DNA of 64,000 bases from the NCBI GenBank assembly GCA_945928645.1, contig CAMENR010000001.1, forward strand, positions 33,439 to 97,438. The letters run 5' to 3'. Shown here in pieces: positions 2,042-37,295 of this stretch. Source of the stretch: an uncultured Clostridia bacterium. GTDB lineage: Bacteria > Bacillota > Clostridia > Christensenellales > UBA1242. The position numbers were made by a program, and so were the translations under genes. Below the pieces are notes generated by a model, which saw only the letters and a program-made list of their open reading frames with translations, did not search any database and was not told the origin of the DNA. How positions within the stretch are numbered: position 1 is the first letter of the stretch; each line of letters starts with the position of its first letter.

Positions 2042-2225
2042 TTACAATTTACCATATGCCAAATTCCATCAAATTAGTTTTATAACCAATTTTAATAAAA
2101 AAATGGCTAATGAAATAAGTACAGTGAATAAGACCCGACATAGAAAAGACTTGTTTTAGCTTTTATCAGTAATAGTATGTTGTAGTATTTTTTCAAAAGC
2201 TAAGGATATAAAAGAGGAGTAATTC

Positions 2226-4109
2226 GTGATAATAAAATCGTGGAAAAATAGTAATAGCCCAAAAGAAATTATGAAGTTAATACAAAAAACAAAGACTATT
2301 GATAAGTTCAAGGTTCTAACTTATTTTGGTTTATATCAAAAAGATTTGGGAATGTTGGAAAAACTATTAAAATCTGGATACTATACTCCAGAAGAAATTG
2401 CGGAAAAATATAGTAGGAGTTATTTGACATGGAGTTATGCTCCAGCTCGTAAATTGGTTTTAGATTTTTCTGATTTAGCATGGCAAAAATCAGATAATTT
2501 ATTAAAGATATTAAGTATAAATGCTGGAGGTGTTTCAGATGATTATGAATCTTTTTTGATAAAGTTAAAATATTTTGAGCGATATAACCATGAAATTTAT
2601 GAGCAACTATTACAAACTAGTAAGGGGCAAATTTATATTCTTAATACATTAGCTCAGGATGCTGAGAAAAATAAAAATCAAATTTTTAACATATTGATAA
2701 GGCATTCAAATTTGCTTGATGGTTTTGATTTAATGGGATATAGAGAGTTGTTTTCAGATGAGGAATTTGAGATAATACAGGAAGAACGAAAAAAAAATTG
2801 GAAATGTGATACTGAGCCTCAACTAATTATGTATAAGGCAACACCAGAAAATAAATGGGAAATACTTGAATATTTTGCAAATAAAAATGAAGTAATTTTT
2901 AATAGAATAGTCAGTGAATATGTAACAAGAACAAGGAAAACTATTAAAAAAATTTATTCTAGAAGCGAAATTCTTGAACATTATAGTTCCATTGAGTTAG
3001 ATCTATTGCCTCTTTGCTTAAAAAATTATATCCTGACATTAGAGAAAGATATTGTAAATGAGAAGAAATTAAAAAGGCAAAAGCAGAAAGAAAGGATTGA
3101 AGTAAAAGAAAAAAAGTTGTTGTCTTGGGATGATGAGTATGCTTCCACAATATTTTTATTTAAGCTTGGTTCAATTACACCTAAGTCAAAATATGAATAT
3201 GAGAAAGTTTTGAAAAAATATTTAGTAGAAAGTTTAAGTATTACTGCATTCTGTATAAAGTATCAAATTAGCAATGTTAAAGGGTTTAAGAAAATGCTTG
3301 AGAAGTTCTCTGCGGAAAACCCTCAATATGCGGAGCAAATTAAATCAAAATCAAACATACAACGAGTACAATATGTAGAAAAAGTAAAGGATATTATCAA
3401 GAGTATTTGTGTTAGAGGCGAGTCTGTTGGATCAATTATGAGGTATTCGAAAATATTTTCGCTTGAGGAATTGCAGGTGGCAGCAAGTAGTTTATTTGCA
3501 GATAAGGATTATTGTGAATCTTTGACTATTAAGGTTATTGAATATTATTATAGTAGATTAGTTTCACATAGATATAGTATTGAGTCTAGTAACTTAGAAA
3601 ATATGCTAACAAATGATGAAATAAGATTTATTGTAGGAGATGAAGAATACAATGCAATAATATTTGGCAAAAAAAGTGAGATAAAAAGAATATTTCTAAA
3701 AAGAATCTCTTTCTTAAGCTCAACACGATATGCACTTATTAGACAAAAAGAAAATAGTCAGATACTAAACTTAATAAAAGCGATTGCTAAATATGACAGC
3801 AAGTTCAATAAAAATGAATATTTAAAAATGACAACATTTCTGTTTACAGAATGTGGGGAACAAGTGAAAGTAACTAAGAAGATAGTAGATATGGCATATC
3901 AATATGCGTACTCTAAAAATATATATACTAGCGATGCTGTTATGAGGAGTTTAATTAAAGGCGTTGTGAATGGTAAAATTAAAAATATAGGGGAGAATGA
4001 ACAAGCCAAAAAAAATAGGAGCAAAGACTTGGAATTTTTTAACAAAATAACTAATATTGATGAATATTTCGCAGTAATAGATAATTTTTATAATAAAAAT
4101 AAACAGTAA
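2226..4109 (+). CDS. hypothetical 627-aa protein, K/E/I/Y-rich, probably all-helical, no recognised motif
   Basis: Long uninterrupted ORF. GTG start lies 6 nt after a strong SD AAGAGGAG (2212-2219). I found no Walker, HExxH, DxD or nuclease motif by eye. Confidence 0.6.
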   Translation: MIIKSWKNSNSPKEIMKLIQKTKTIDKFKVLTYFGLYQKDLGMLEKLLKSGYYTPEEIAEKYSRSYLTWSYAPARKLVLDFSDLAWQKSDNLLKILSINAGGVSDDYESFLIKLKYFERYNHEIYEQLLQTSKGQIYILNTLAQDAEKNKNQIFNILIRHSNLLDGFDLMGYRELFSDEEFEIIQEERKKNWKCDTEPQLIMYKATPENKWEILEYFANKNEVIFNRIVSEYVTRTRKTIKKIYSRSEILEHYSSIELDLLPLCLKNYILTLEKDIVNEKKLKRQKQKERIEVKEKKLLSWDDEYASTIFLFKLGSITPKSKYEYEKVLKKYLVESLSITAFCIKYQISNVKGFKKMLEKFSAENPQYAEQIKSKSNIQRVQYVEKVKDIIKSICVRGESVGSIMRYSKIFSLEELQVAASSLFADKDYCESLTIKVIEYYYSRLVSHRYSIESSNLENMLTNDEIRFIVGDEEYNAIIFGKKSEIKRIFLKRISFLSSTRYALIRQKENSQILNLIKAIAKYDSKFNKNEYLKMTTFLFTECGEQVKVTKKIVDMAYQYAYSKNIYTSDAVMRSLIKGVVNGKIKNIGENEQAKKNRSKDLEFFNKITNIDEYFAVIDNFYNKNKQ

Positions 4110-4197
4110 AAAAACTTTAAAAGCGTCATAAGAAATTATAGTAGGTAATAACACACATATTATAAAACTACAACTTATTTTGTCATTCAACCAACTA

Positions 4198-4225
4198 TTG
4201 ACAACTCAAAATTTTATGATATACT
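4198..4225 (+). promoter_or_regulatory. candidate sigma-A promoter for the HExxH gene
   Basis: TTGACA (4198-4203), 16-nt spacer, TATACT (4220-4225), with TGn just upstream (extended -10). Confidence 0.5.
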
Positions 4226-4281
4226 CACTATAACAATTAAAATACATTCATTTTTATTTTGTAAATGTATTGGAGGGTAAC

Positions 4282-5700
4282 GTGGGGAAAGATAAAGAGG
4301 AAGCTTTGAAAAATTACTTTTTGAAAAAGGCTTACAAAAAAAGAGATATTGTTGAAGATGATGGTCTTGTCAACTATGTGGATATGGCGACAGGTAAAGT
4401 TGTTTATAATGATTATGAATTAGGCATTGGAAAATTCAACTTTGAAGATGTATCAGAACTGTCTTTGGATGATGCAATAGAAGTCAGGGCAAAAGAATTG
4501 GAAAGTATATTTGAGATGGGACTAAATGCATCGGGTAATTTTTCAAGAAGAGATTGGTTTTTTTATGTTATTAAATCTGCTAGGGCTGTATCAAATTTTT
4601 GTTGCGCAGTGATGGATATTGACCCAAATAGTGTGCTAGTTGAGTATTACGGAAGTGATAAAGGTTATACAATTATTGACTTAAATAAAGAAAATAGCCT
4701 AAACAATCTTGAAAAAAATGAAGGTCAAAATAATTGTGAAGCAAATGAGAAGTGCGCTAGCAAGATTGCAAATCAAAATGAAAATTTAACAGATGATGAA
4801 CAAGATAATGAAGAGTTCCAAGTTCAAGACTTCAGTGATGCTGCATATACAACAGGGTTTTTGGAAAATGGAAAACCAAAGTTTTGTATAGGAATAAATA
4901 TTGCGTTCCCAATGGAAACTTCAGTAGGACGTGTCTCTGATGTTTTTTGCACTTTTTTTCACGAAATGTGGCATGTTAAGGAATACAATGAGGAACTTTT
5001 ACACTTAAAAAATGTGGCAGAAAATTTAATAATAAAAGAATGTGATGGTTCAGAGATTGAATTTGAAAAGCCTGAAAATATTACTGATGAAACAAAAATG
5101 AATTTTATACAACAACTTATTGACAGATACAAAAGATGTTCTGCATATTCTGTTGATTATAGAACTTGGAGCTGTAATCCATCAGAAAGGAAGGCAGACC
5201 TTTTTGGGACTAGAATGACAAAGTTCTTTCTAAATGAGATAAATGCGGATAAAAAAACTAAGAAACTATTTTTGCGTGATAGAAAACGAGTGATGAACGA
5301 TCACGACTTCAATAGTATTTATGTCCCTATAAGGTCAGCGATAAAGGCGTTGCTTAACATTGATGTTCCAGGAGAGTTAAAGGACAACCAATATTTTGCC
5401 GATGAGATTTCAGAAGATGAAAGAGTGTCTCTTCTTAGCATTGAAAAGGCAGCAGATAACAATCCTGATTTATTGGGTCAAGAAAATTTTGAGATCAATG
5501 ATTATCACAATCCATTAGAGATGACAGAACAAACGGCTGAAAATCAAAGAGATGTTTATATAGAATTCTTGAAAAAGAATTTTGATGCTGTAAACAAAAT
5601 TATGGATTTGAACGACGAATGTCTAAATATAGAATATATGGAAGAAGACCTTGAAAATAACAGAGAGGACATGGAAGCAGGGATGTATCTGTTAAATTAA
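4282..5700 (+). CDS. hypothetical protein with zincin-like HExxH motif (possible metallopeptidase fold)
   Basis: HEMWH followed by H nine residues later (FFHEMWHVKEYNEELLH). Acidic/N-rich linker in the middle. GTG 4282 lies 4-5 nt after GGAGGG (4272-4277); the track's TTG 4270 overlaps that SD. Confidence 0.6.
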   Translation: MGKDKEEALKNYFLKKAYKKRDIVEDDGLVNYVDMATGKVVYNDYELGIGKFNFEDVSELSLDDAIEVRAKELESIFEMGLNASGNFSRRDWFFYVIKSARAVSNFCCAVMDIDPNSVLVEYYGSDKGYTIIDLNKENSLNNLEKNEGQNNCEANEKCASKIANQNENLTDDEQDNEEFQVQDFSDAAYTTGFLENGKPKFCIGINIAFPMETSVGRVSDVFCTFFHEMWHVKEYNEELLHLKNVAENLIIKECDGSEIEFEKPENITDETKMNFIQQLIDRYKRCSAYSVDYRTWSCNPSERKADLFGTRMTKFFLNEINADKKTKKLFLRDRKRVMNDHDFNSIYVPIRSAIKALLNIDVPGELKDNQYFADEISEDERVSLLSIEKAADNNPDLLGQENFEINDYHNPLEMTEQTAENQRDVYIEFLKKNFDAVNKIMDLNDECLNIEYMEEDLENNREDMEAGMYLLN

Positions 5701-5933
5701 AATAGAAGAACTTATCTACAAAATTGAAATTATAGATAAGAATCTATCTTGCTAGATTAAAAATTTAGATTAAAAATAGAGAATAGTATATTTACTAAAT
5801 AAAAAGAAAGATTATTCTTCTACATTAAAAATAATTAAGTATAATTTTTATAATTTGTAAGCATAATCACTATAATTTATTTAATAAAAATCTCAGACTT
5901 TTTGACTGAAGTGTAATATTTATAATTAGTTAA

Positions 5934-5969
5934 ATAAAAAATCTCAGACATATTTGCCTGAGATTTTTT
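5934..5969. terminator. bidirectional rho-independent terminator
   Basis: A-run, stem ATCTCAG (5941-5947) / CTGAGAT (5958-5964), T-run to 5969. Follows tRNA-Leu on the minus strand and the HExxH gene on the plus strand. Confidence 0.65.
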
Positions 5970-6054
5970 GGTACCAAAGGAGGGACTCGAACCCTCATGA
6001 AGTTGCCCTCGTCAGATTTTGAGTCTGATGCGTCTACCATTCCGCCACTTTGGC
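5969..6054 (-). tRNA. tRNA-Leu (anticodon CAA), CCA encoded
   Basis: Reverse complement GCCAAAGTGGCGGAATGGTAGACGCATCAGACTCAAAATCTGACGAGGGCAACTTCATGAGGGTTCGAGTCCCTCCTTTGGTACCA folds as a cloverleaf. Anticodon loop is CTCAAAA, the variable arm is long, and the T-loop is GGTTCGAGTCC. Confidence 0.9.
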
Positions 6055-6306
6055 ACAAAATTATATTTGTAGCAAACCTATCACTTGCAACTCTTGTATA
6101 ATATCATAAATAATCAAAATATGCAATAATTTTTTTAGAGTTTTTCTAAAAAAAATAAAAATAGTTATTTTTACGCCTAATAATGTTAAAATTAGAACTT
6201 GAATGTTATTGTTGAAATAAGTAGTTTATTCGATAATTATATTTTCATAATTAAAACTTTGAATAAAATATTTTGCCAATTAGATTTATTGATGTATAAT
6301 ATTTCT

Positions 6307-6798
6307 ATGAAAGAAGTATATATTTGGACAGACGGGGCTTGCTCAGGGAATCCTGGCCCTGGTGGGTATGCAGGCATTATTACATGTGATGGTAGAGGGA
6401 AGAATGTTTTTGGGGCTAGGGAAGAAACCACAAACAATAGAATGGAGCTGTTGGCCGTTATAAAGGCATTGGAATTGTTAAAGGTTCAGTGTAAGGTTGT
6501 GTTACATTCTGACAGTGCCTATGTGTGCAATGCCATAAATAATGGATGGTTGGAGAGTTGGCAGTTGAGGGGGTGGAAAACAGCAGATAAGAAGACTGTT
6601 CTTAATCAGGATCTTTGGGAAAAACTGTTAGACTTGCTGACCAAATATGAGGTTCATTTTGTAAAAGTTAAAGGACATTCTGACAATAAATTAAACAACG
6701 AATGTGATGAAATGGCTCGAAATGCAATCTTAACGATGCAATCAAGGAAAGTTGATGCCTTTGATGAAGTAGAAGTCAGAAAAATTGAGCAAATATAA
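6307..6798 (+). CDS. rnhA: ribonuclease HI
   Basis: DGACSGNPGPGGYAGII, NNRMELLAVIKALE, HSDSAYV and VKGHSDNKLNNECDEMA supply the RNase H1 D-E-D-H-D residues. Start moved to ATG 6307 (MKEVYIWTDGA); the longer TTG ORF has no support. Confidence 0.9.
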   Translation: MKEVYIWTDGACSGNPGPGGYAGIITCDGRGKNVFGAREETTNNRMELLAVIKALELLKVQCKVVLHSDSAYVCNAINNGWLESWQLRGWKTADKKTVLNQDLWEKLLDLLTKYEVHFVKVKGHSDNKLNNECDEMARNAILTMQSRKVDAFDEVEVRKIEQI

Positions 6799-7165: not shown

Positions 7166-7906
7166 TTATCTATGTTTAGAAAGTTTGTTGTCTATTATTA
7201 GAGTAATTGAAAGCAATAGGACAATATAAAATAGAACATATAAGATGTGTGGATAAATACAACTTGTCCCAATGGTCTGCAATTCTGTGGCAATGGCTAC
7301 AGAATGAGAGAATGGAAGGAGATTAACTATTGTCCCAAATGTTCCAGAAAAGGCAGTTGTTGGCATAAAAATTCCGCCAAAGATGCCTATTACACTAATT
7401 AGGATAGAAGATATAGGTCCAGTAACTTTTTCGTTTTTTGAGATAACTCCTATAAAAATTCCAAAAGTTATGTATAATATTGCTGACGGAATAAGATAAA
7501 TTATACTAAGTAACAAATTGAAATTAAATGGAAAGCCAAAAGCCAATGCTACCATGAAAAATAGAGTTGTTTGAAGCAAAACCATAGGGAAGGAGGAAAT
7601 GTAGTAACTAAAGAGATAATTGTAACGATGGATAGGGGATATATCTAGTCTTTTTATGAATGATGTGTTTTTATCTGTGGCTATTTGCATTGAAATATAG
7701 AGGGAGATAAAGGTGTATCCAAATACGCATATCCCACTAGCATAATTTTGAATTTGGAAATTATCCGGAGTGCTTGGTATGCTTTTGAATAAAATTTGCA
7801 TAAGCAAAAGCATAAAAAGAGGAAATGCTATGCATAAGACCAAACTGACAGGATCTCTAAACATTTCTATAATATTACGTTTTGCAATAACAAAAGTTTT
7901 TCTCAT
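7166..7906 (-). CDS. ABC-2 type transporter permease
   Basis: About 6 hydrophobic spans. N-terminus MRKTFVIAKRNIIEMFRDPVSL is typical of the ABC-2 family. Overlaps the upstream ATPase gene by 4 nt. Confidence 0.85.
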   Translation of the reverse strand: MRKTFVIAKRNIIEMFRDPVSLVLCIAFPLFMLLLMQILFKSIPSTPDNFQIQNYASGICVFGYTFISLYISMQIATDKNTSFIKRLDISPIHRYNYLFSYYISSFPMVLLQTTLFFMVALAFGFPFNFNLLLSIIYLIPSAILYITFGIFIGVISKNEKVTGPISSILISVIGIFGGIFMPTTAFSGTFGTIVNLLPFSHSVAIATELQTIGTSCIYPHILYVLFYIVLLLSITLIIDNKLSKHR

Positions 7907-8616
7907 ACTTCCTCCTCTGTAATGGAAAGAAAAGCATCTTCAAGATTCTTTGTTCCTGTGTTTTTCAAAATTTCTTCTATACTGCCTACACTTTTAATTT
8001 TGCCATGTGATATGATTCCTACTCTATCTGCTAAATTTGCTACTTCCTCAAGATAATGAGTAGTTAGTATAATGGTCATTTTACCCTTTAGTGAAGATAT
8101 TGTTTCCCACAAAATTTTTCTCGCTTTTATGTCAAGTCCCAAGGTTGGCTCATCAAGAAATAACACCTTTGGTTGTGATATTAGTCCAAGCGCTAGGCTA
8201 ACTCTCCTCATTTGCCCTCCAGAAAGATTTTTGCATCTAATATTTGCCTTTTCTTGTAGTTGAAGTTTTGATATTATATTGTTAATTTTTTCTTCCTTGT
8301 CTGTTATATTGTACAAAGAAGCAATAAAATTCAAATTCTCTCTAACTGTAAGATTTTTTGCAACTGCTGTTTCCTGTGGGGAAATGTTTATAATCTTTCT
8401 TACCTCAAGTGGATTTTTGATAATATCAAAACCACCAATTTTTGCTGTTCCACTGGTAGGCAATAGAACAGTTGAAAGCATATTGATAAGCGTTGTTTTG
8501 CCTGCACCATTTAGTCCAAGCAGGGCAAAACACTCATTTTCTTTTATCCTTAGGCTGAGATTGTCCACTGCTACAAGGGATTTATATTTTTTGGTTAAAT
8601 TTTCAATTTCAATCAT
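7903..8616 (-). CDS. ABC transporter ATP-binding protein
   Basis: Walker A GLNGAGKTT, signature LSGGQMRR, Walker B LFLDEPT. Start placed at ATG 8616 (MIEIENL) behind SD GGAGAG. Confidence 0.9.
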   Translation of the reverse strand: MIEIENLTKKYKSLVAVDNLSLRIKENECFALLGLNGAGKTTLINMLSTVLLPTSGTAKIGGFDIIKNPLEVRKIINISPQETAVAKNLTVRENLNFIASLYNITDKEEKINNIISKLQLQEKANIRCKNLSGGQMRRVSLALGLISQPKVLFLDEPTLGLDIKARKILWETISSLKGKMTIILTTHYLEEVANLADRVGIISHGKIKSVGSIEEILKNTGTKNLEDAFLSITEEEV

Positions 8617-8824
8617 TTTGCTCTCCGTTTTTTGCCTTAAAAATTTCTTCTGCAAATTTCAAATAATCATCGTATTTGGCTATGCCAATGCCTCTTTCGG
8701 TGTCGCCTAAAAGGATTAACATATCGCCTTCCTTTATATCAAATACATCTCTTGCTTCTTTAGGGATAACGATTTGACCTTTACTAGTTACCTTGGTTGT
8801 CCATATAAATTTTTTCTTTTCCAT
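8609..8824 (-). CDS. AbrB/SpoVT-domain small DNA-binding protein
   Basis: KVTSKGQIVIPKEARDVFDIKEGDMLILL is the swapped-hairpin AbrB/MazE-type motif. Its stop overlaps the ATPase start by 8 nt. Confidence 0.8.
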   Translation of the reverse strand: MEKKKFIWTTKVTSKGQIVIPKEARDVFDIKEGDMLILLGDTERGIGIAKYDDYLKFAEEIFKAKNGEQND

Positions 8825-12131: not shown

Positions 12132-14297
12132 TTATGCACGCACTTGTTTTGGGCCAAATAAAAGGGAATAAGTGGATTGATTAGTATTTGAGCAAGTTCT
12201 TTGTATATAATCTACAACAGGGAGTCTTAATGGGGCTGTGTAATTATTTATTCTGTTATTATTCTGTGTAGATGAGTTGTTTCTTATATTTTGGTTATTT
12301 CTTCCAGTATTGCTATTTTGATATTGATTGTTTGTTTGATTATATTTTTGAATATTGTTATAGTTGTTTGTCGAGTTATATGCCTGGTTGTTGTTTTGAT
12401 TGTTTTTGTTGTAATTAAAATTCTGCATATTATTATTTCTATTGGCTGTATTATAATTGCGTGATGTATTATTTTGATTGAAATTCCTGTTCATATTATT
12501 ATAATTTTGAGAATAATTTTGGGTAGAATTATTATTTGAATTATTTATACCATTCATATTTTGTGAGTTGTAGTTGGTGGCAGAATGGGAATTGTTTATT
12601 CTATTGTTTTGATTGTCAAGATTAGCCTTTCTTATTGTGTTATTTGAAGAATTGTCCATTTGAGATGTTTTGTTGTTTTGAATTTTATTATAACTTACAC
12701 CATAGTTTGAATTTTGATTTTTGTTTGTTGTAGAGTTGTTGACATTTGTATTAGTTTTGTTCATTGCATATTGATTTGAATTATTTTGATTATATGCAGA
12801 TGATGTTTGATTTGTATTATTTATTGATGTATTATCTGAAACTTTTGTTGCATTGTTATTTGAAGTCTTATTTTGATATGAATTATATTGGTTAGAGAGT
12901 TTTTGACTATCATATATAGTATTTTCTATTGTTCTATCATCAGCCAAAGACTTGGATGCAACACTTGGAATAATTGTTGAAGAATCTGGATTTTTGTTTT
13001 CTGTAACTTCCTGAGTGTTTTTAGTATCCTTTGTATAGTTATTGTTTATGTTATTATTTTGTTGATTGAGAGAATTATTAGAGTAATTGGTTGAATTATT
13101 TTGATATGCATTTGTGTTATTTTGATATCTATTTGTATTTTCTTGATATCTATTTGTATTTTCTTGATATTTATTCGAGTTGTTTTGATACCTGTTTGAG
13201 TCATAAACTTTGTTTTTTGTTCTATTGGCTGAGTTATAATTGTTTGATTGATTATTTTGATTTATATAACTATTATTGCTGTTTTGTGAGTTTGAAACAC
13301 TATTTCTAGAAGATTGATATCGATTGCTGTCAAATTGATTTTTTGCATAATTATATCTTGTTTTTGAAGTTTGATTGGAGTTTAACATTGTATTGTCTAC
13401 TGTTTTTTCGCCAAGGAGTTTGCTGGCAAAATTTATAAGGTCTAAAACAGAATTGTTTGCGTTGTTGCAAGTATTGCAATTGGAGTCTATGCAGTTGTAA
13501 ATATTTCTATAATCTGCTGTCATAGAGCCAGAGTTGCTTGCTAGATTAAGCTTTTTCTTACCAATAGTGTTTACTGTGGATTTGCAACCTTTGCAAGATG
13601 TAATATTATTGGTGCATTGTTTGATAACTTCGTAGTAACTATTTAGTGTCTTGACATCACTGTCCGAAAGTTTTGCTTCACCTTTCTTTAATCTTTCCAA
13701 AAGTTCTTTGGCACGATTGCAGTTGTTTATAAGAGAAGTCTTTGTGTTGGAATATTCTTTGTTTAGGTCGCAAACATTGTTGCACGCTGTTCTAAGGTCA
13801 TTGTAGCTGGTGTCGCTGGTTGCAAGGTTAAGATTTCTCTTGGTTGCTCTGTAGTCATTTGATGCAAATAGGTTGGCGTTGGCTCGTTGAGTCATATGAT
13901 TTTTTGTTGGCATTTTTACATTCAGAACTTCTCTGTATGGATAAATATTTCTTCTAGTGTTGCTTCTTTGAGTAGAAGTGTCGCCATTCTGACTAGAAGT
14001 ATTGTAATTTTGGGAATAATTTTTGCATCTATAGCAACTTCCATCTTCACAATAATAGCAATCATCTCCATAGCAGTGATAACCGTCAGAAGTGTCCATA
14101 TTTTCTCCCAAAATAGAGTTTAGATTTATCTTGTCAGTGTTTACTTCCTCCAGTTTTTTTACCTGGGAAATCATCTTATCCAATCCTCCAGATATTTTTT
14201 TGCTAGCAAGATTGACCTGCGCTTGATTGCCATTTGAACATGCAAAAAGGAAGGTGCAAGCCAGCAAGATTGACAATAATCCAATAAATTTTTTCAT
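12132..14297 (-). CDS. lipoprotein with Cys-rich N-terminal domain and very long Asn/Gln-rich low-complexity tract
   Basis: Signal peptide plus lipobox (MKKFIGLLSILLACTFLFAC|SNG). Cys clusters include CYGDDCYYCEDGSCYRCKNY and CIDSNCNTCNN. From about aa 305 to 690 the sequence is dominated by N, Q, S, T and Y. Confidence 0.8.
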   Translation of the reverse strand: MKKFIGLLSILLACTFLFACSNGNQAQVNLASKKISGGLDKMISQVKKLEEVNTDKINLNSILGENMDTSDGYHCYGDDCYYCEDGSCYRCKNYSQNYNTSSQNGDTSTQRSNTRRNIYPYREVLNVKMPTKNHMTQRANANLFASNDYRATKRNLNLATSDTSYNDLRTACNNVCDLNKEYSNTKTSLINNCNRAKELLERLKKGEAKLSDSDVKTLNSYYEVIKQCTNNITSCKGCKSTVNTIGKKKLNLASNSGSMTADYRNIYNCIDSNCNTCNNANNSVLDLINFASKLLGEKTVDNTMLNSNQTSKTRYNYAKNQFDSNRYQSSRNSVSNSQNSNNSYINQNNQSNNYNSANRTKNKVYDSNRYQNNSNKYQENTNRYQENTNRYQNNTNAYQNNSTNYSNNSLNQQNNNINNNYTKDTKNTQEVTENKNPDSSTIIPSVASKSLADDRTIENTIYDSQKLSNQYNSYQNKTSNNNATKVSDNTSINNTNQTSSAYNQNNSNQYAMNKTNTNVNNSTTNKNQNSNYGVSYNKIQNNKTSQMDNSSNNTIRKANLDNQNNRINNSHSATNYNSQNMNGINNSNNNSTQNYSQNYNNMNRNFNQNNTSRNYNTANRNNNMQNFNYNKNNQNNNQAYNSTNNYNNIQKYNQTNNQYQNSNTGRNNQNIRNNSSTQNNNRINNYTAPLRLPVVDYIQRTCSNTNQSTYSLLFGPKQVRA
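13101..13205. repeat. 5 x 21-bp in-frame tandem repeat inside the lipoprotein gene (encodes NRYQENT-type heptads)
   Basis: Units start at 13101, 13122, 13143, 13164 and 13185 (TTGATATCTATTTGTATTTTC consensus). Units 2 and 3 are identical. Confidence 0.9.
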
Positions 14298-30370: not shown

Positions 30371-31252
30371 ATGGACAGAGAAACGATAATTCGGTTATCT
30401 CAACTAAAAAACAAAGAAAAAGTGCAGGACTTTTATACAAAAGCCCTGTCCTTTTTAACTGCATCATTAAGTGAATTGGTTGATAGCAGACTGGTCCAAA
30501 ACTTTGATGAATCTACTACAAAAATTTTTCCTATGGGAGAATATACCAACAACACCTTTATAGATGAACTTGGAGAATTGGAAATTGTTGTAGCATCATC
30601 AAACCCACAACTTGTGCTTTCCAATGCTATCCTAACCAAACATAATAGCAAAAAACAAGAGCAAAGATTTTTAATTACAGGGACTTATGCCGACATAATA
30701 CCAAAATTAGCTCAAATTATGTCGCAATATTTTGCTGAGAAAACAATGTTTTTGCTTGTTGATGACGGTCTAAAAATCTTTTGCGCCAATGAATTTGGGT
30801 TTAAGATTTTGATTAGGTTTGCCACCTATCTGGAGGGTGATGAAAATGCTATTTTGTCATTTTGGAATCCTCTAAAGAATTGCAGTGAACAAGTTAATTT
30901 GTTTGCTTATAACGAGCAAATGGACTTAAAAGATAGTCTTACCAAAGGAAATTATAAAAAAATTGTTAGAATATTCAAAAATATACGAAAGACAATCCTT
31001 ATAAATAAATGGATGACAGCCAGTCAAATGAATAAATATTTCGTAGAATTGATTATTTATAATATTCCAAACACATTGCTTATGGGCGATGAGATAGGGA
31101 AGATTTTTTACAAATGCCTTAATTTTCTTCAAAATTGTAGTATTTCAAAATTTACTTCTTTTGACGGGAAACCCCTTGATTCATTTACTCTTGCAGAAAT
31201 TAGTTATGCAAATATAAAGACTTTTCTGCATTATATATCCAAAATTATATAA
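30371..31252 (+). CDS. hypothetical protein, possible Pol-beta-superfamily nucleotidyltransferase fold (SMODS/CD-NTase-like?) with ExE in place of DxD
   Basis: PMGEYTNNTFIDELGELEIVV aligns by eye with the G[SG]-x9-13-[DE]h[DE]hhh NTase signature. Later WNPLKN...KGNYKKIVRIFKNIRK resembles the helical lid. ATG 30371 lies behind GAAGGGAAGG, 27 nt after the serS stop. The family call is tentative. Confidence 0.45.
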   Translation: MDRETIIRLSQLKNKEKVQDFYTKALSFLTASLSELVDSRLVQNFDESTTKIFPMGEYTNNTFIDELGELEIVVASSNPQLVLSNAILTKHNSKKQEQRFLITGTYADIIPKLAQIMSQYFAEKTMFLLVDDGLKIFCANEFGFKILIRFATYLEGDENAILSFWNPLKNCSEQVNLFAYNEQMDLKDSLTKGNYKKIVRIFKNIRKTILINKWMTASQMNKYFVELIIYNIPNTLLMGDEIGKIFYKCLNFLQNCSISKFTSFDGKPLDSFTLAEISYANIKTFLHYISKII

Positions 31253-31912
31253 GTCAGAAAAGATTGATAGATTATTTAACTACAAAATAAATTTTTATAT
31301 TTTGGAGTAGGTTAGGTGCTATGCAAACAATATTAAGTGCTATGCAAAATAACTACAATTCATACTACTATGCAAACTTTCAAACAAATCAAATAGATTT
31401 TTATAAAAAGCAACTAATTATTACATTTGTTTAATTTGATTTATTTAGGCTATATCATAAAAAACTATAAATTTTATATTGTGTTATAGATAGTATGCCA
31501 TTTTTTTTTGCAATTTAATATGATATAGAATTATGATATAGAATATTATCGGAAATAACACAAAATTTTGAATATTTTTTGTAGAGCAAACAAAGGTTTA
31601 TTTATATCATTTTTTTTGCAAATTTACAATGAATAATCCTTCATATAAAAATAGAAATTCTGTCTCAGACAACTTTTATGAGATGTTATTTTTGCAAAAA
31701 AATAAAAATCTCACACAGATTATATTTTTTTATGCAAATTTATGAGATGTTTAGATACAGGATTTTAATCAAATTTATATAAAATACAAAATAATAAATC
31801 ACATAAAATCAATCAAATATTAAAAATTTTTATAAAAACCTAGATAAATAATGATATTTTAATAAAAAACAAATTTTTGTAAAAAATGGTAAAAAGTAGC
31901 AAAAATTACACC

Positions 31913-31946
31913 AACTATTCGCAAAACCTGTGTTTTGCGAATAGTT
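31913..31946. other. perfect 15-bp inverted repeat with 4-nt loop
   Basis: AACTATTCGCAAAAC (31913-31927), CTGT, GTTTTGCGAATAGTT (31932-31946). No adjacent T-run on the plus strand; a weak TTTTT lies 8 nt downstream on the minus strand. Confidence 0.9.
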
Positions 31947-32132
31947 TATACGAGTTGAGAGTTGTTCTTTTTTACAAAAATTTGTTACTTTTTTATATAA
32001 CAACTTGAAAAGTAATAGTATTTTTTAATAAACAAGTTTACTATATAAATTATTTTTTAATGTTTTTTATCTATGCAGGCGGGGTTCTCTATTAAAAGTT
32101 TTTGTATGTTAATTATTCTAAAAACTTTTGTG

Positions 32133-32969: not shown

Positions 32970-34553
32970 ATGTCAGAAAATTTGGATAACAAGGCTCAAA
33001 GGGGTTCTATAGCACCTATTATTATCACTGCACTAAGTTCAGGGGATAAATATGGTTATGAAATATGCAAGGAGATAGAGCGTTTGTCTGGAGGCAAGCT
33101 TATTTTGAAACAGCCAAGTTTGTATAGCAGTTTGCGAAGAATGGAGGAGCAACATCTCGTTCATTCCTATTGGAAGGATAGTGAACTTGGTGGAAATCGT
33201 CATTATTATGTGCTTACAGACGAGGGGAAAAAACTTTTTGAAGAAAATAAAAACGTATGGCTTATGGAAGATTTAATATCTTCTCTTCCATCCAGCGAGT
33301 ATCAATTAAATCAAGAACAACCTGAAACCAAAAGGGCTGGGGATGTGTCTGTGGGCAGGCAAGAAACATTGTTTTCCCTTCCCTCTTCTCGCCCAGAAAT
33401 TAAAAAAATTGACGAATCTCAAGAGCAAGAAGACAACAAAAACCAATCTTTTTATCAGTTTGACCTTTTTGGACAAGATGTAAAAGCGGTTTCTAAACAA
33501 AACATAACACAAAAAATAGAGGCTTATACCAATAAATATGAGAATATGGACAATCATCAAAATGAAATTGAGCCTGCTAGACCATTGAATGAAAATGAGC
33601 CTATAGTTAGGACTTCTATATTTGATGTTGCAAAGAAGTTAAATAATAAAAATCAAGATATTTCTTCTACTCAACCAGAGGAAAAAACCCTATTAGGCAA
33701 TGCAAACAGTGCGTCATCGATAGAAAATAATAACGTAATTGAATATACAGAAGAAAAAATATCTGACCAAAAGGAATTGCCAAAAAAAGAGGAAATTTCA
33801 TGGAATGAGCCAGAAAAGGAAGATCCTATCTTTGAAAATAATGACTATAAAACTGTAATTGGCAATCTGTATAACAAATCTCAAATGACTGATCCCTATG
33901 AACAAAATAGGGCGAAAACATTTAAGGAGATATTCCCTTCTTCGCAACTTTCTGAACAATCAAAAGAAACAAGAACAAGCGAAATAGATGCTTTTGTAGA
34001 AAAAAATTCTGATAGTAATATAGATTGTAATGACCTATCTATGATTGCAAATCTATACAAACTTCAGGGGCTTGATGTAAGAAAACATAATAATGAAAAT
34101 GCCAAGTCTAATTCTAAAATTTATACAGACAAAAACAAACTTAATATGTTCACTGCATGGACAACTGCCCTATTTATGTTGTTTGAAGTGATATTTTGCT
34201 ATTTATTCCTAAACAAAGATGGCTATGTATTGCAAGGACAGAGGCTAGTTTATTTTCTTGCTGGGGCATGTGCTTGCAGTATTGCACTGGTATTTACCTT
34301 GGAAAACTTCCTAAATAGATATAGACTTATAGTTATAGAAACAAAATTTAAGCGAGAAATTACCAAACGATTATTGTTGTTCTTGTTTTCTGCAATAATT
34401 ATATTTGCAATCTGTTTGGCTTTTGGGATGAAAGATATCCTTCAGCGAGAATTTTTGAGTTATTGGCTGGTTCCTGTGTTGGTTGCTTCTAATATTGTGT
34501 TGTCTTATATAATTTTCTACCTTTTTTATAAATCCAACAAGTTTAATTATTGA
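32970..34553 (+). CDS. PadR-family winged-helix regulator fused to a long low-complexity linker and 4 C-terminal TM helices
   Basis: N-terminus IITALSSGDKYGYEICKEIERLSGGKLILKQPSLYSSLRRMEEQHLVHSYW...RHYYVLTDEGKKL is a canonical PadR. Four hydrophobic spans occupy the last about 135 aa. Confidence 0.75.
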   Translation: MSENLDNKAQRGSIAPIIITALSSGDKYGYEICKEIERLSGGKLILKQPSLYSSLRRMEEQHLVHSYWKDSELGGNRHYYVLTDEGKKLFEENKNVWLMEDLISSLPSSEYQLNQEQPETKRAGDVSVGRQETLFSLPSSRPEIKKIDESQEQEDNKNQSFYQFDLFGQDVKAVSKQNITQKIEAYTNKYENMDNHQNEIEPARPLNENEPIVRTSIFDVAKKLNNKNQDISSTQPEEKTLLGNANSASSIENNNVIEYTEEKISDQKELPKKEEISWNEPEKEDPIFENNDYKTVIGNLYNKSQMTDPYEQNRAKTFKEIFPSSQLSEQSKETRTSEIDAFVEKNSDSNIDCNDLSMIANLYKLQGLDVRKHNNENAKSNSKIYTDKNKLNMFTAWTTALFMLFEVIFCYLFLNKDGYVLQGQRLVYFLAGACACSIALVFTLENFLNRYRLIVIETKFKREITKRLLLFLFSAIIIFAICLAFGMKDILQREFLSYWLVPVLVASNIVLSYIIFYLFYKSNKFNY

Positions 34554-34568
34554 TAAGGAGTATTTGCT

Positions 34569-35510
34569 TTGACTGATAAAGTAGTATTAAGTGTAAGAGG
34601 CTTGTCCAAAAAATATGGCAAAAGAATTGCCGTCAATAATCTTTCCTTCGACATTCACGAAGGAGAGATTTTTGGCTTTTTGGGGCCAAATGGAGCTGGC
34701 AAATCTACTGCAATAAAAATGATTACTGGCTTAGCAAAGATGAAAAGTGGAGAGGTCCTGATATGCGGGTATTCAATAAAAAAACAATTTGAAAAAGCAA
34801 TCTCTCTAGTGGGGGGGATCATTGAAAATCCAGAAATGTATAACAATCTTTCGGGGAGGAATAACCTTGAATTTTATGCTCGATTATCTGGCGTGTATTC
34901 TCCACAAAAAATTGATGACGTTGGCAAAATAGTTGGATTGACCAGCCGATTAAAAGACAAAGTAGGCACATATTCTCTAGGTATGAAACAAAGGCTTGGC
35001 ATCGCACAGGCATTGTTGCATGACCCGAAGTTACTAATTTTGGATGAACCAACCAACGGACTAGACCCAGAAGGGATTGTTGATTTGAGGAAGTTCCTTA
35101 GAAGACTTGCCAATGATAGAAAAATTGCTATACTCGTTTCTAGTCACAATCTAGCAGAGATGGAATTGATGTGTGATACAGTTGGAATAATAAATTTGGG
35201 TTATATGGATAAAATTTTACACATTTCCTCAACGACCAAGGAAGATGGAGAGCAGGTTTCTATCCAAGTTAACTTTCCAAATTATGCCGGCAAGTTGATA
35301 CTAGAAAAATATGGCAAACGCAAAATTTCTATAGTTAAAAATACTATCACAGTGGACATCTCACACGATAAAATTCCGGAAATAACTGCCCTGCTGGTAA
35401 ACAATGGAATTTCTATTTACTCAATTTCAGAGAAGAAACAGAATTTGGAAAGCATTTTCCTAGAAACAATAAACAAGAGGGCCTTGCCTTCCCCAAAGTC
35501 AAATTATTAA
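34569..35510 (+). CDS. ABC transporter ATP-binding protein
   Basis: Walker A GPNGAGKST, signature YSLGMKQR, Walker B LILDEPTNGLD. TTG start lies 8 nt after AAGGAG. Confidence 0.9.
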   Translation: MTDKVVLSVRGLSKKYGKRIAVNNLSFDIHEGEIFGFLGPNGAGKSTAIKMITGLAKMKSGEVLICGYSIKKQFEKAISLVGGIIENPEMYNNLSGRNNLEFYARLSGVYSPQKIDDVGKIVGLTSRLKDKVGTYSLGMKQRLGIAQALLHDPKLLILDEPTNGLDPEGIVDLRKFLRRLANDRKIAILVSSHNLAEMELMCDTVGIINLGYMDKILHISSTTKEDGEQVSIQVNFPNYAGKLILEKYGKRKISIVKNTITVDISHDKIPEITALLVNNGISIYSISEKKQNLESIFLETINKRALPSPKSNY

Positions 35511-35519
35511 GGAGTAAAA

Positions 35520-37295
35520 ATGCAAAAAATATTTCGATTAACAAAGGGTGAAATAAAGAAGATATTTCTTAGCCCAATAATATTTGTTATGACTGCGGTA
35601 ATAATACTGGCGCTTACAATAGCACCCAAGTTTTTTACTCCAGACGAAAACATTACAACAGAATCATCCGTAACTTTAAGTGGTTATAAGGTAACAGAAA
35701 TATATAGTAGTTTTTTGAATGAATACAAATCAGATTATGAAAATTCTTATACATCTGCCCTAGTTGAATATCATAGCCTAATAGAAAATCCAAAAGATAA
35801 AGCACAATCGCTGTTATCAAAAATGAATATTATAAAACAGGCATGGACTGACTTTTTAACCAGCATTGATACTTTGGAAAATGCTTCCACCGAAGAAGAA
35901 ATTTCCACAGCGAAAAACAATAGCCTAAACAAACAAAACATTCTAAAAGAAAAATTCGTTGAAACGGAAAATTATTATACAAACCTTATTCAACAATATT
36001 CTATCCCTCTAATTTTGGTCACAGAACAAACAGATATGGATATTCAAGACAATTTGGGCAGGGCAAAATCTATATTAACATATTCCTCATCTGAAAAAAA
36101 TATTGAGTATTTTAAGAATATCAAGAATTTAATTGAAAACTTTGATTGTATAAACAAACTTGAAGATAATATAGCAAAAGTAAAGGATTTGAGTTATTCA
36201 ACCGAAATTCTGCAATCAAATTACAATTACTTTCAAACATTATCCAGCGAGAAAACCTCTACTGCGCTTGAAAAGGTTAATAGTTTAAATCAAGAGGCTT
36301 CCCTTAATGCCGAATTTGATGCCAATGAAAGCAACCAAATCCTTATGAAAAACTTAATAATTAGATATCTTTCTGCTTGTGGCAATGCAACAAAAACATT
36401 GAATAATGACCTAAAATACAATATAATTGAAGACTATGGTGATGTTGCGATGGCAAAATATGTTGGGTTTGAAGATGCAAATAGTTATAGGCTGGCAGAA
36501 GCTAAGACTAAATATTGCTATCTTTTGGAGAATGATTATGCAGACAGTGATTTAGCCTCTACCCTTTCATTTAATAAAAATTCTCATTCAGAAACCAATG
36601 CATTTGACTATATGTATTTTGCGATGGAAATTGTAAGCATTGTAATAATAACCTTTACTGTGGTTTTGGGGGCTGGAATGATTGCAAAAGAACACAGTCA
36701 GGGGACGATAAAACTTTTAGCCATAAGACCATACAAGCGCTGGAAAATTATTTTTGCAAAAACTCTCGCCACATTGTTCTTTGGCTTTGTCTTTGTATTG
36801 CTTTCAGCCATAGTAACTTTGATAACAGGTATAATTATCTATGGAATATCCTTCCCTACTATGTTAGTAGTTTTTAATGCAAGCACAGTGTTTGTTGCTC
36901 CTATATGGGCTGTATTCTTAATATACTTGGCAACTCTTATGCTAAAGATTTGGATATATGCCCTACTTGCAATAGCAATATCTACAATATTTAATTCTTA
37001 CCTGGCCTCAGTGTGCATTGCAGTTGGAATATATGCAACCAATATTATTGTTACATTTGTTTCTAGAGGTGCTACTTGGCTTAGATACAATGTCTTTGCA
37101 AATATTGATTTGTTTAAGTATTTTGGTGGAAGTTTTTCTTCGTCATACAATTCATTACAAAATCTTACAAATTTATTTTCCTCACCAGTCTTTCCAGGAG
37201 TCAATTTTAACATGTCCCTTGTCATCGTTGCCAGCATTATTGTAATATTAAATGTTGCAATGTTGACTGTTTTTAACAAAAAAGACATAGTTTGA
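35520..37295 (+). CDS. ABC-2-like permease with about 330-aa extracytoplasmic domain after TM1
   Basis: TM1 at aa about 17-40, a long hydrophilic region to about aa 375, then about 6 TM spans. Confidence 0.8.
   Translation: MQKIFRLTKGEIKKIFLSPIIFVMTAVIILALTIAPKFFTPDENITTESSVTLSGYKVTEIYSSFLNEYKSDYENSYTSALVEYHSLIENPKDKAQSLLSKMNIIKQAWTDFLTSIDTLENASTEEEISTAKNNSLNKQNILKEKFVETENYYTNLIQQYSIPLILVTEQTDMDIQDNLGRAKSILTYSSSEKNIEYFKNIKNLIENFDCINKLEDNIAKVKDLSYSTEILQSNYNYFQTLSSEKTSTALEKVNSLNQEASLNAEFDANESNQILMKNLIIRYLSACGNATKTLNNDLKYNIIEDYGDVAMAKYVGFEDANSYRLAEAKTKYCYLLENDYADSDLASTLSFNKNSHSETNAFDYMYFAMEIVSIVIITFTVVLGAGMIAKEHSQGTIKLLAIRPYKRWKIIFAKTLATLFFGFVFVLLSAIVTLITGIIIYGISFPTMLVVFNASTVFVAPIWAVFLIYLATLMLKIWIYALLAIAISTIFNSYLASVCIAVGIYATNIIVTFVSRGATWLRYNVFANIDLFKYFGGSFSSSYNSLQNLTNLFSSPVFPGVNFNMSLVIVASIIVILNVAMLTVFNKKDIV

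Follow-up and report, generated by a model that had tools for sequence, protein, structure and literature searches.

Two large open reading frames (ORFs) of no evident family lie side by side between an SDR gene and a tRNA-Leu gene in the genome of an uncultured Clostridia bacterium of the Christensenellales (contig CAMENR010000001.1, positions 33,439 to 97,438; these 64,000 nucleotides are hereafter called the window). A first-pass annotation had joined the two into a single cassette of low guanine-plus-cytosine (GC) content, wedged against the tRNA gene in the manner of an accessory or defence module. Do the two genes belong together, and what might their products do? Here we report a comparison of the locus with related contigs, denoted by L numbers, and conclude with moderate confidence that these are two independent genes: ORF2, a resident of the locus encoding a putative gluzincin-type peptidase, and ORF1, an accessory gene borne by recombination. 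Our verdict on both is that they are ordinary lineage-restricted orphans of an under-sampled pig-gut Christensenellales clade; several of the source samples are pig-gut metagenomes. Six of the 21 called genes in the 22-kb syntenic locus of the sister species L001 are without a Pfam match, and family-less genes are therefore common here.

Distribution and history of the two genes

ORF2 (positions 4282-5700, plus strand; 472 amino acids, intact) encodes an acidic protein and is present at the locus in all relatives found, which also keep the order SDR-ORF2-tRNA-Leu. Contigs L010, L011 and L017, whose ORF2 proteins share about 33-35% identity with that of the window, read GlnRS-SDR-ORF2-tRNA-Leu and have no ORF1. 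The near-identical strain L016, with an ORF2 98.5% identical to the window copy, likewise has none, and the same is true of seven more contigs whose ORF2 allele is of the window type (the named contigs with ORF2 and without ORF1 are L010, L011, L016, L017 and L018-L022). The best explanation is that ORF2 is a resident gene of the gap between the SDR gene and tRNA-Leu in a small Christensenellales clade. Synonymous divergence (dS) of ORF2 from L001 is 1.0, at the level of the chromosomal backbone, and the ratio of non-synonymous to synonymous divergence (dN/dS) is 0.15 in this comparison and about 0.15 in all pairs, which places the gene under purifying selection. Between the window and L017 identity falls from 92% for GlnRS and 79% for the SDR protein to 35% for ORF2, and between L011 and L017 from 96% for the SDR protein to 60% for ORF2; the gene is fast-evolving yet constrained. 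An exhaustive reading of 1.84 billion representatives gave three clusters of its relatives at 50% identity, and at 90% identity clustering yields 27 members for ORF2 and five for ORF1.

ORF1 (positions 2226-4109, plus strand; 627 amino acids, intact) has a different record. Its GC content of 0.277 is the lowest among the 50 ORFs of the window (mean 0.347, standard deviation 0.029), about 2.4 standard deviations under the mean, and its GC at third codon positions (0.225) is also the lowest of the 50; the window as a whole has 33.2% GC. The three spot counts given by the first-pass annotation (17/60, 18/60 and 25/60) are exact, and its description of the pair as low in GC holds for ORF1 and fails for ORF2, which at 0.328 (32.8%) is ordinary among the window ORFs. 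The gene is carried on a strain-variable segment (positions 2050-4171, plus strand; GC 0.274). Alignment with L016, at 96-97.5% nucleotide identity, breaks at 2049/2050 and resumes at 4171/4172, and in place of ORF1 that strain has 379 bp of non-coding sequence that includes an intrinsic terminator, functional-looking as a terminator of the SDR gene. This spacer bears no similarity to the other sequences compared, those flanking ORF1 among them. Terminal inverted or direct repeats and target-site duplications at the ends of the segment do not rise above chance, the matches there being AT-rich only. Against L001, which carries ORF1 at the same site, the gene has a dS of 0.135 and a dN/dS of 0.47, compared with a dS of 0.88-1.0 and a dN/dS of 0.01-0.07 for the backbone genes GlnRS, SDR, DinB and SpoVAC. 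A dS so far below that of the backbone means that the common ancestor of the two ORF1 copies is much younger than that of the host chromosomes.

Contig L009 marks a breakpoint on the 3' side. It is 97-100% window-like through ORF1, and at about 4261-4300 it switches to a sequence 92-100% identical to L001, which continues through ORF2 and beyond; the dS between the ORF2 genes of L009 and L001 is 0.16, close to the value for ORF1. Most simply, window-like strains would have received ORF1 from a relative of L001 through homologous recombination within conserved flanks, and the neighbouring ORF2 allele may or may not have come along. ORF1 would thus have entered from a sister species that has it at the same site, and the incoming gene would have replaced the 379-bp spacer together with the SDR terminator. 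The direction of this polymorphism, gain rather than loss, is read from dS, GC and outgroups and not from a reconstructed event, which counts as a point against us. That ORF1 is instead ancestral at the site, with strains such as L016 being deletion variants, is favoured by the occurrence of the gene at the same position in both L001 and the window and by the lack of resemblance between the L016 spacer and the ORF1-flanking sequence. We nevertheless find this highly doubtful, as the outgroups L010, L011 and L017 have no ORF1, its dS is 7-fold under that of the backbone, its GC is the lowest in the window and the ORF1-less spacer has a terminator that looks fit to serve the SDR gene.

To a single accessory or defence cassette inserted by tRNA-Leu we give almost no credence. 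The two genes are adjacent, on the same strand and both family-less, ORF1 is low in GC and a tRNA gene is near; however, at least nine contigs of at least four lineages have ORF2 and no ORF1, seven loci have ORF1 and no ORF2, and ORF2 has the GC and dS of its surroundings and a conserved promoter of its own. The tRNA-Leu(CAA) gene is indeed adjacent, as annotated (positions 5969-6054, minus strand), and it adjoins ORF2 in relatives with or without ORF1. An island flanked by it does not emerge: all relatives keep the order of SDR, ORF2 and tRNA-Leu, an integrase gene is absent, the 3' end of tRNA-Leu is not repeated (up to 3 mismatches allowed), no flanking direct repeat could pass for an attachment site, and the variable segment ends 1.8 kb from the tRNA gene. 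The proposed defence role fared no better. PADLOC-DB 2.0 returned zero families for either protein at E<=1, the neighbourhood of ORF1 and ORF2 holds no defence-type genes, IMG/VR yielded no relatives of either, and translated searches (tblastn) of INPHARED phages and PLSDB plasmids gave no matches. The locus is a caution that two adjacent genes need not be a defence cassette even where low GC and a tRNA gene close by suggest one, since a handful of related contigs splits this pair into two histories.

ORF2, a putative gluzincin-type peptidase

That neither protein falls into a known family, as first annotated, has been borne out. ORF1, ORF2 and all their homologues gave nothing at threshold against Pfam, NCBIfam, PADLOC and PHROGs. 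Searches of PDB sequences with full-length profiles of the two proteins and with an ORF2 core from which the linker had been deleted returned noise only (CoxIn, superoxide dismutase, MbdO), Foldseek against PDB and BFVD placed neither protein in a family, and neither gene has a paralogue within the window.

What ORF2 does possess is a set of residues held invariant across five lineages at 31-74% identity. Foremost is the HEMWH motif that the first-pass annotation had pointed out (H227-E228-x-x-H231; nucleotides 4960-4974, plus strand), a conserved zincin motif that would provide two zinc ligands and the catalytic base. It sits within the invariant block F226-H227-E228-M229-W230-H231, K233 and E234 (FHEMWHxKE). 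Further invariants are R282, R285, C286, Y289, D292, T295 and W296, followed by E302, A305, D306, F308, H341 and Y347-V348-P349. The candidate for the third zinc ligand lies in the stretch E302-R-K-A305-D306 (nucleotides 5185-5199, plus strand), on what would be the 'glutamate helix'. The SprT/WLM-like reading of the first-pass annotation, HEMWH followed nine residues later by a histidine, is not upheld: H241 is missing from three distant lineages (P0015, P0016 and L017) as well as from L001 and P0002, which confines it to the window-type allele, and the invariant downstream motif is an ExxAD of gluzincin type.

Gluzincins are defined by an HEXXH motif combined with a downstream EXXXD or ExxA on the 'glutamate helix' (PMC3356374; PMC6414381), and both of these sequence features are found in ORF2, the HExxH being conserved and E302-x-x-A305-D306 lying on a predicted helix (residues 300-319). 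The metzincin signature, HExxHxxGxxH/D with a Met-turn, is not found in ORF2, where the motif reads HEMWHxKExx[E/D] and the position of the glycine is taken by the invariant E234. In the better parts of the AlphaFold2 model, helices at 62-111 and strands at 118-206 precede the HExxH helix, which starts at 218, and the ExxAD helix at 300-319; the element order as predicted is canonical for gluzincins. On the strength of its conserved residues we propose that the acidic ORF2 protein, which has no transmembrane segment and no signal peptide, is a zinc peptidase of the cytoplasm and represents an undescribed family of gluzincin-like type. Its core would most likely work in this way, with H227, H231 and E302 binding zinc, E228 acting as the general base and D306 orienting a histidine; substrate choice or regulation may be set by the C-terminal helical domain and by two acidic insertions that vary.

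Several observations weigh against this assignment. The spacing between HExxH and the glutamate is given as 20-60 residues in gluzincins (PMC3356374) and is 70 in ORF2, an excess for which the variable acidic insertion in this interval would account. Other invariant acidic residues (E234, an acidic residue at 237, and E253) could serve as the third ligand. The AlphaFold2 model is poor, with a mean predicted local distance difference test (pLDDT) of 50.6, and its Foldseek hits are consequently meaningless. No profile or fold evidence joins ORF2 to any peptidase family; the best family match, to Peptidase_M91, reaches 16.5 bits against a cut-off of 25 bits, and does so for one homologue only (P0015).

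The HExxH motif could have some other metal-dependent or structural role, for example in a metal-sensing regulator or in an ImmA-like anti-repressor with a single partner. Such a role would suit the failure of hidden Markov models to recover a peptidase family, the atypically long distance to ExxAD and the long acidic insertions, and an invariant pair of cysteines together with C286 and H341 could make a different metal site. We regard it as unlikely, though by no means negligible: HExxH and ExxA(D) are invariant at 33-35% overall identity, they lie in the most conserved blocks of the protein and their predicted helices come in the canonical order. ImmA-like proteases are themselves gluzincin-like, and this alternative therefore differs from a gluzincin-type peptidase mainly in substrate breadth.

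ORF1 and its relatives at other loci

The product of ORF1 is a basic protein (105 lysines and arginines against 84 aspartates and glutamates), soluble and without a transmembrane segment. Its AlphaFold2 model is confident (pLDDT 81.7) and helical throughout, and includes a charged helix of 37 residues at 263-299; the predicted template modelling score is low (0.44), which fits several flexibly joined domains. Segment-wise hhalign revealed no internal repeats. Aromatic or hydrophobic residues predominate among the invariant positions, which include one cysteine and no histidine, and for this reason we tentatively regard ORF1 as a binding or scaffold protein that is probably non-enzymatic. It counts against this role that it derives only from composition and from the lack of catalytic-looking invariants, and that Foldseek against PDB and BFVD returned only generic helical-repeat proteins for ORF1, at E>=0.08. 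The family is a small one: 5.8 billion proteins gave 12 clusters of relatives, searching with a profile of 11 homologues brought in no further members, and among 185,579 GTDB species representatives ORF1 occurs in one, a Christensenellales metagenome-assembled genome.

Relatives of ORF1 with 35-62% identity occupy other loci in seven contigs, none of which encodes a relative of ORF2. They lie after a GNAT gene in L007 and L013, after rho in L006, between a MetRS/GNAT pair and gyrB in L003, after a Mur ligase gene in L014 and in the rpoC-rpsL spacer in L005 and L015. At all seven a conserved ORF of 50-53 amino acids stands directly upstream of the ORF1 relative, separated from it by 0-4 nucleotides or overlapping it (L003 9846-9998; L005 2490-2651; L006 5157-5312; L007 373-528; L013 4049-4204; L014 1996-2151; L015 53-214). 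Its consensus is MxFxRNxYFDNLIIEVKENKNxLxKLDYEELxLFxNYLLDLNKYLKDKKGE; the small protein has no Pfam match, and neither the small nor the large protein of the pair matches a family. Upstream of ORF1 in the window neither this 51-residue ORF nor a remnant of it was found by tblastn and six-frame translation, and it is also absent from L001 and L009. As the arrangement of the genes is best explained, the small partner would be translationally coupled to the ORF1 relative in other lineages and the window copy would have lost it.

Three further observations concern these loci. The ORF1 homologues of L005 (2651-4960, 769 amino acids) and L015 (214-2322, 702 amino acids) differ by one extra tandem unit of about 67 residues in the N-terminal region; the two strains are about 98-99% identical in nucleotide sequence, and this is a case of intragenic repeat copy-number variation. 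The normally compact rpoC-rpsL spacer of L005 (1-8688) houses, besides the pair of the 53-residue ORF and the ORF1 homologue, genes for an S-adenosylmethionine-dependent methyltransferase, a 335-residue orphan and a HicB-like antitoxin. In L007, two genes downstream of the ORF1 homologue, a 577-residue protein (4486-6219) scores above the gathering threshold for the HopA1 effector family (PF17914, E 2.9e-5).

Could ORF1 and its small partner be a new kind of module, mobile and self-contained, akin to a toxin-antitoxin or anti-phage system, that hops between intergenic sites and of which the window holds a partner-less and possibly decaying copy? The tight coupling of the two proteins, of 51 and about 630 residues, at various loci in seven lineages speaks for it, one of these loci being the rpoC-rpsL spacer beside the HicB-like gene, as do the low GC, a dN/dS of 0.3-0.5, presence or absence at strain level and the change in intragenic repeat number. 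However, there are no relatives in IMG/VR, phages or plasmids and no PADLOC or PHROGs matches, the junctions in the window bear neither terminal repeats nor target duplications, and the import into the window needs homologous recombination only. L007 and L013 have upstream synteny in common, L006 and L007 downstream synteny, and this fits vertical descent with rearrangement; catalytic-looking invariants are lacking as well. We therefore hold a hopping module to be improbable. A bolder version, in which the pair is a new mobile conflict module (addiction or anti-phage) spreading by recombination among pig-gut Christensenellales while ORF2 founds a new gluzincin family marked by arms-race divergence and allele swapping, we would call a long shot. 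Our preferred reading of ORF1 remains that of an accessory gene brought to its present site by homologous recombination.

Expression signals

Both genes start with a codon other than ATG, in keeping with the first-pass annotation. The GTG start of ORF1 is preceded at a distance of 6 nucleotides by the Shine-Dalgarno sequence GAGGAG (positions 2214-2219, plus strand; read from the sequence). This start is sound: the N-terminus is conserved, and in the homologues of L009 and L001 an ATG takes the place of the GTG. For ORF2 a mechanical ORF list gives a TTG at 4270; the true start is likely the GTG at 4282, which is favoured by the Shine-Dalgarno sequence GGAGGG at 4272-4277 (plus strand) and by the length of 472 amino acids of the database proteins.

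The promoter TTGACA-16-TATACT that had been assigned to ORF2 is located at 4198-4225 (plus strand), has 11 of 12 consensus matches and a TG-extended -10 element, and is also kept in the related contigs L001, L009 and L016. ORF2 would thus be transcribed from its own sigma-A-type promoter, most likely ending at a terminator shared with tRNA-Leu. In the interval of the window from the SDR gene to ORF2, no plus-strand terminator was found and no good promoter ahead of ORF1, for which reasons transcription probably reads through from the SDR gene into ORF1, a consequence also to be expected if the incoming segment displaced the SDR terminator.

The shared terminator is a bidirectional intrinsic one (positions 5935-5968, both strands), which serves tRNA-Leu on the minus strand and probably also ORF2 on the plus strand. 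It folds at -15.1 kcal/mol on the plus strand (z -4.3 relative to shuffled sequences) and at -17.8 kcal/mol on the minus strand (z -6.1). The motif AAAAATCTCAGAC is present twice here, at 5886 and 5937, and with one mismatch tolerated it matches at 4 places, where 0.37 would be expected; the two copies form an 18-nucleotide direct repeat (5886-5903 and 5937-5954, their starts 51 nucleotides apart). Of the two, the second supplies the 5' arm of the hairpin that terminates tRNA-Leu and abuts the tRNA gene; the first, which forms no hairpin (z +0.5), seems to be a partly duplicated terminator arm. The 3' features described in the first-pass annotation thus stand in part: the duplication is real and its second copy belongs to a genuine terminator hairpin, but the AT-rich hairpins after ORF2 (5711-5760) are no more stable than shuffled sequences (z -1.1). 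A scan of the whole window with Rfam matched only three tRNAs.

Neighbouring variation in the window

Next after tRNA-Leu lies rnhA (6307-6798). Its RNase H product shares only about 55% identity with that of L001, against 94-98% for the flanking GlnRS and DinB, and the gene thus resembles an allele beside the tRNA gene that was replaced or that evolves very fast. The listed rnhA start, a TTG at 6199, is probably wrong, the ATG at 6307 coming after a TTGCCA-16-TATAAT promoter at 6273-6300. At 7166-8824 on the minus strand, an ABC-2 permease, an ABC ATPase and a 71-residue AbrB/MazE-fold protein are encoded, genes that also occur in L016, L018, L019 and L021; the L001 counterpart is a 90-residue permease remnant, which makes this a second presence/absence polymorphism within 3 kb of the locus.

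Further away, a 721-residue orphan (12132-14297, minus strand) without a Pfam match is 78% identical in L001, and its dS of 0.53 and dN/dS of 0.19 lie between the values of the backbone and those of ORF1. The most AT-rich kilobase of the window is 31001-32000 (GC 0.22). At about 34000-37000 the cumulative GC skew peaks and gene orientation passes from mostly plus to mostly minus, as would fit a replication terminus or the boundary of a large inversion.

Comparison with known systems

Neither gene touches a long-standing open question, and their interest is modest. ORF1 and its small partner constitute a family as small as that of ORF2 and exemplify the flexible genome content of an uncultured gut lineage. 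ORF2 combines a complete gluzincin motif with no detectable peptidase homology, such that a structure or a demonstrated activity would add a new peptidase family.

ORF1 resembles flexible genes that are swapped by homologous recombination between conserved flanks, with which it shares presence or absence between flanks that are identical, low GC, low dS and the breakpoint on the 3' side. It is unlike them in being a single gene and not an island, with neither mobility genes nor a recognisable cargo function.

For ORF2 three groups of zincins invite comparison. Peptidase_M91, which comprises NleD-like effector zincins (PF14891), is the sole match below threshold and covers the strand and HExxH region of P0015 (residues 195-265); of the five homologues only this one shows the match, which the window protein lacks. 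SprT/WLM zincins have in common with the window ORF2 the HExxH motif and a histidine nine residues on, but in the ORF2 family this histidine is not conserved, the downstream motif is built on glutamate and there is no Pfam SprT/WLM match. From the gluzincins M48/M56 (HtpX and the L3 loop of BlaR1), M13 (neprilysin-like) and M34 (lethal-factor-like), ORF2 differs in the absence of detectable sequence-profile similarity, in being soluble and cytoplasmic rather than membrane-bound or secreted, in its spacing of about 70 residues with an acidic insertion and in its large N- and C-terminal helical extensions. It is like these same families in the HExxH helix with a later E-x-x-A-D helix, and in the beta-sheet and helices that precede the active-site helix.

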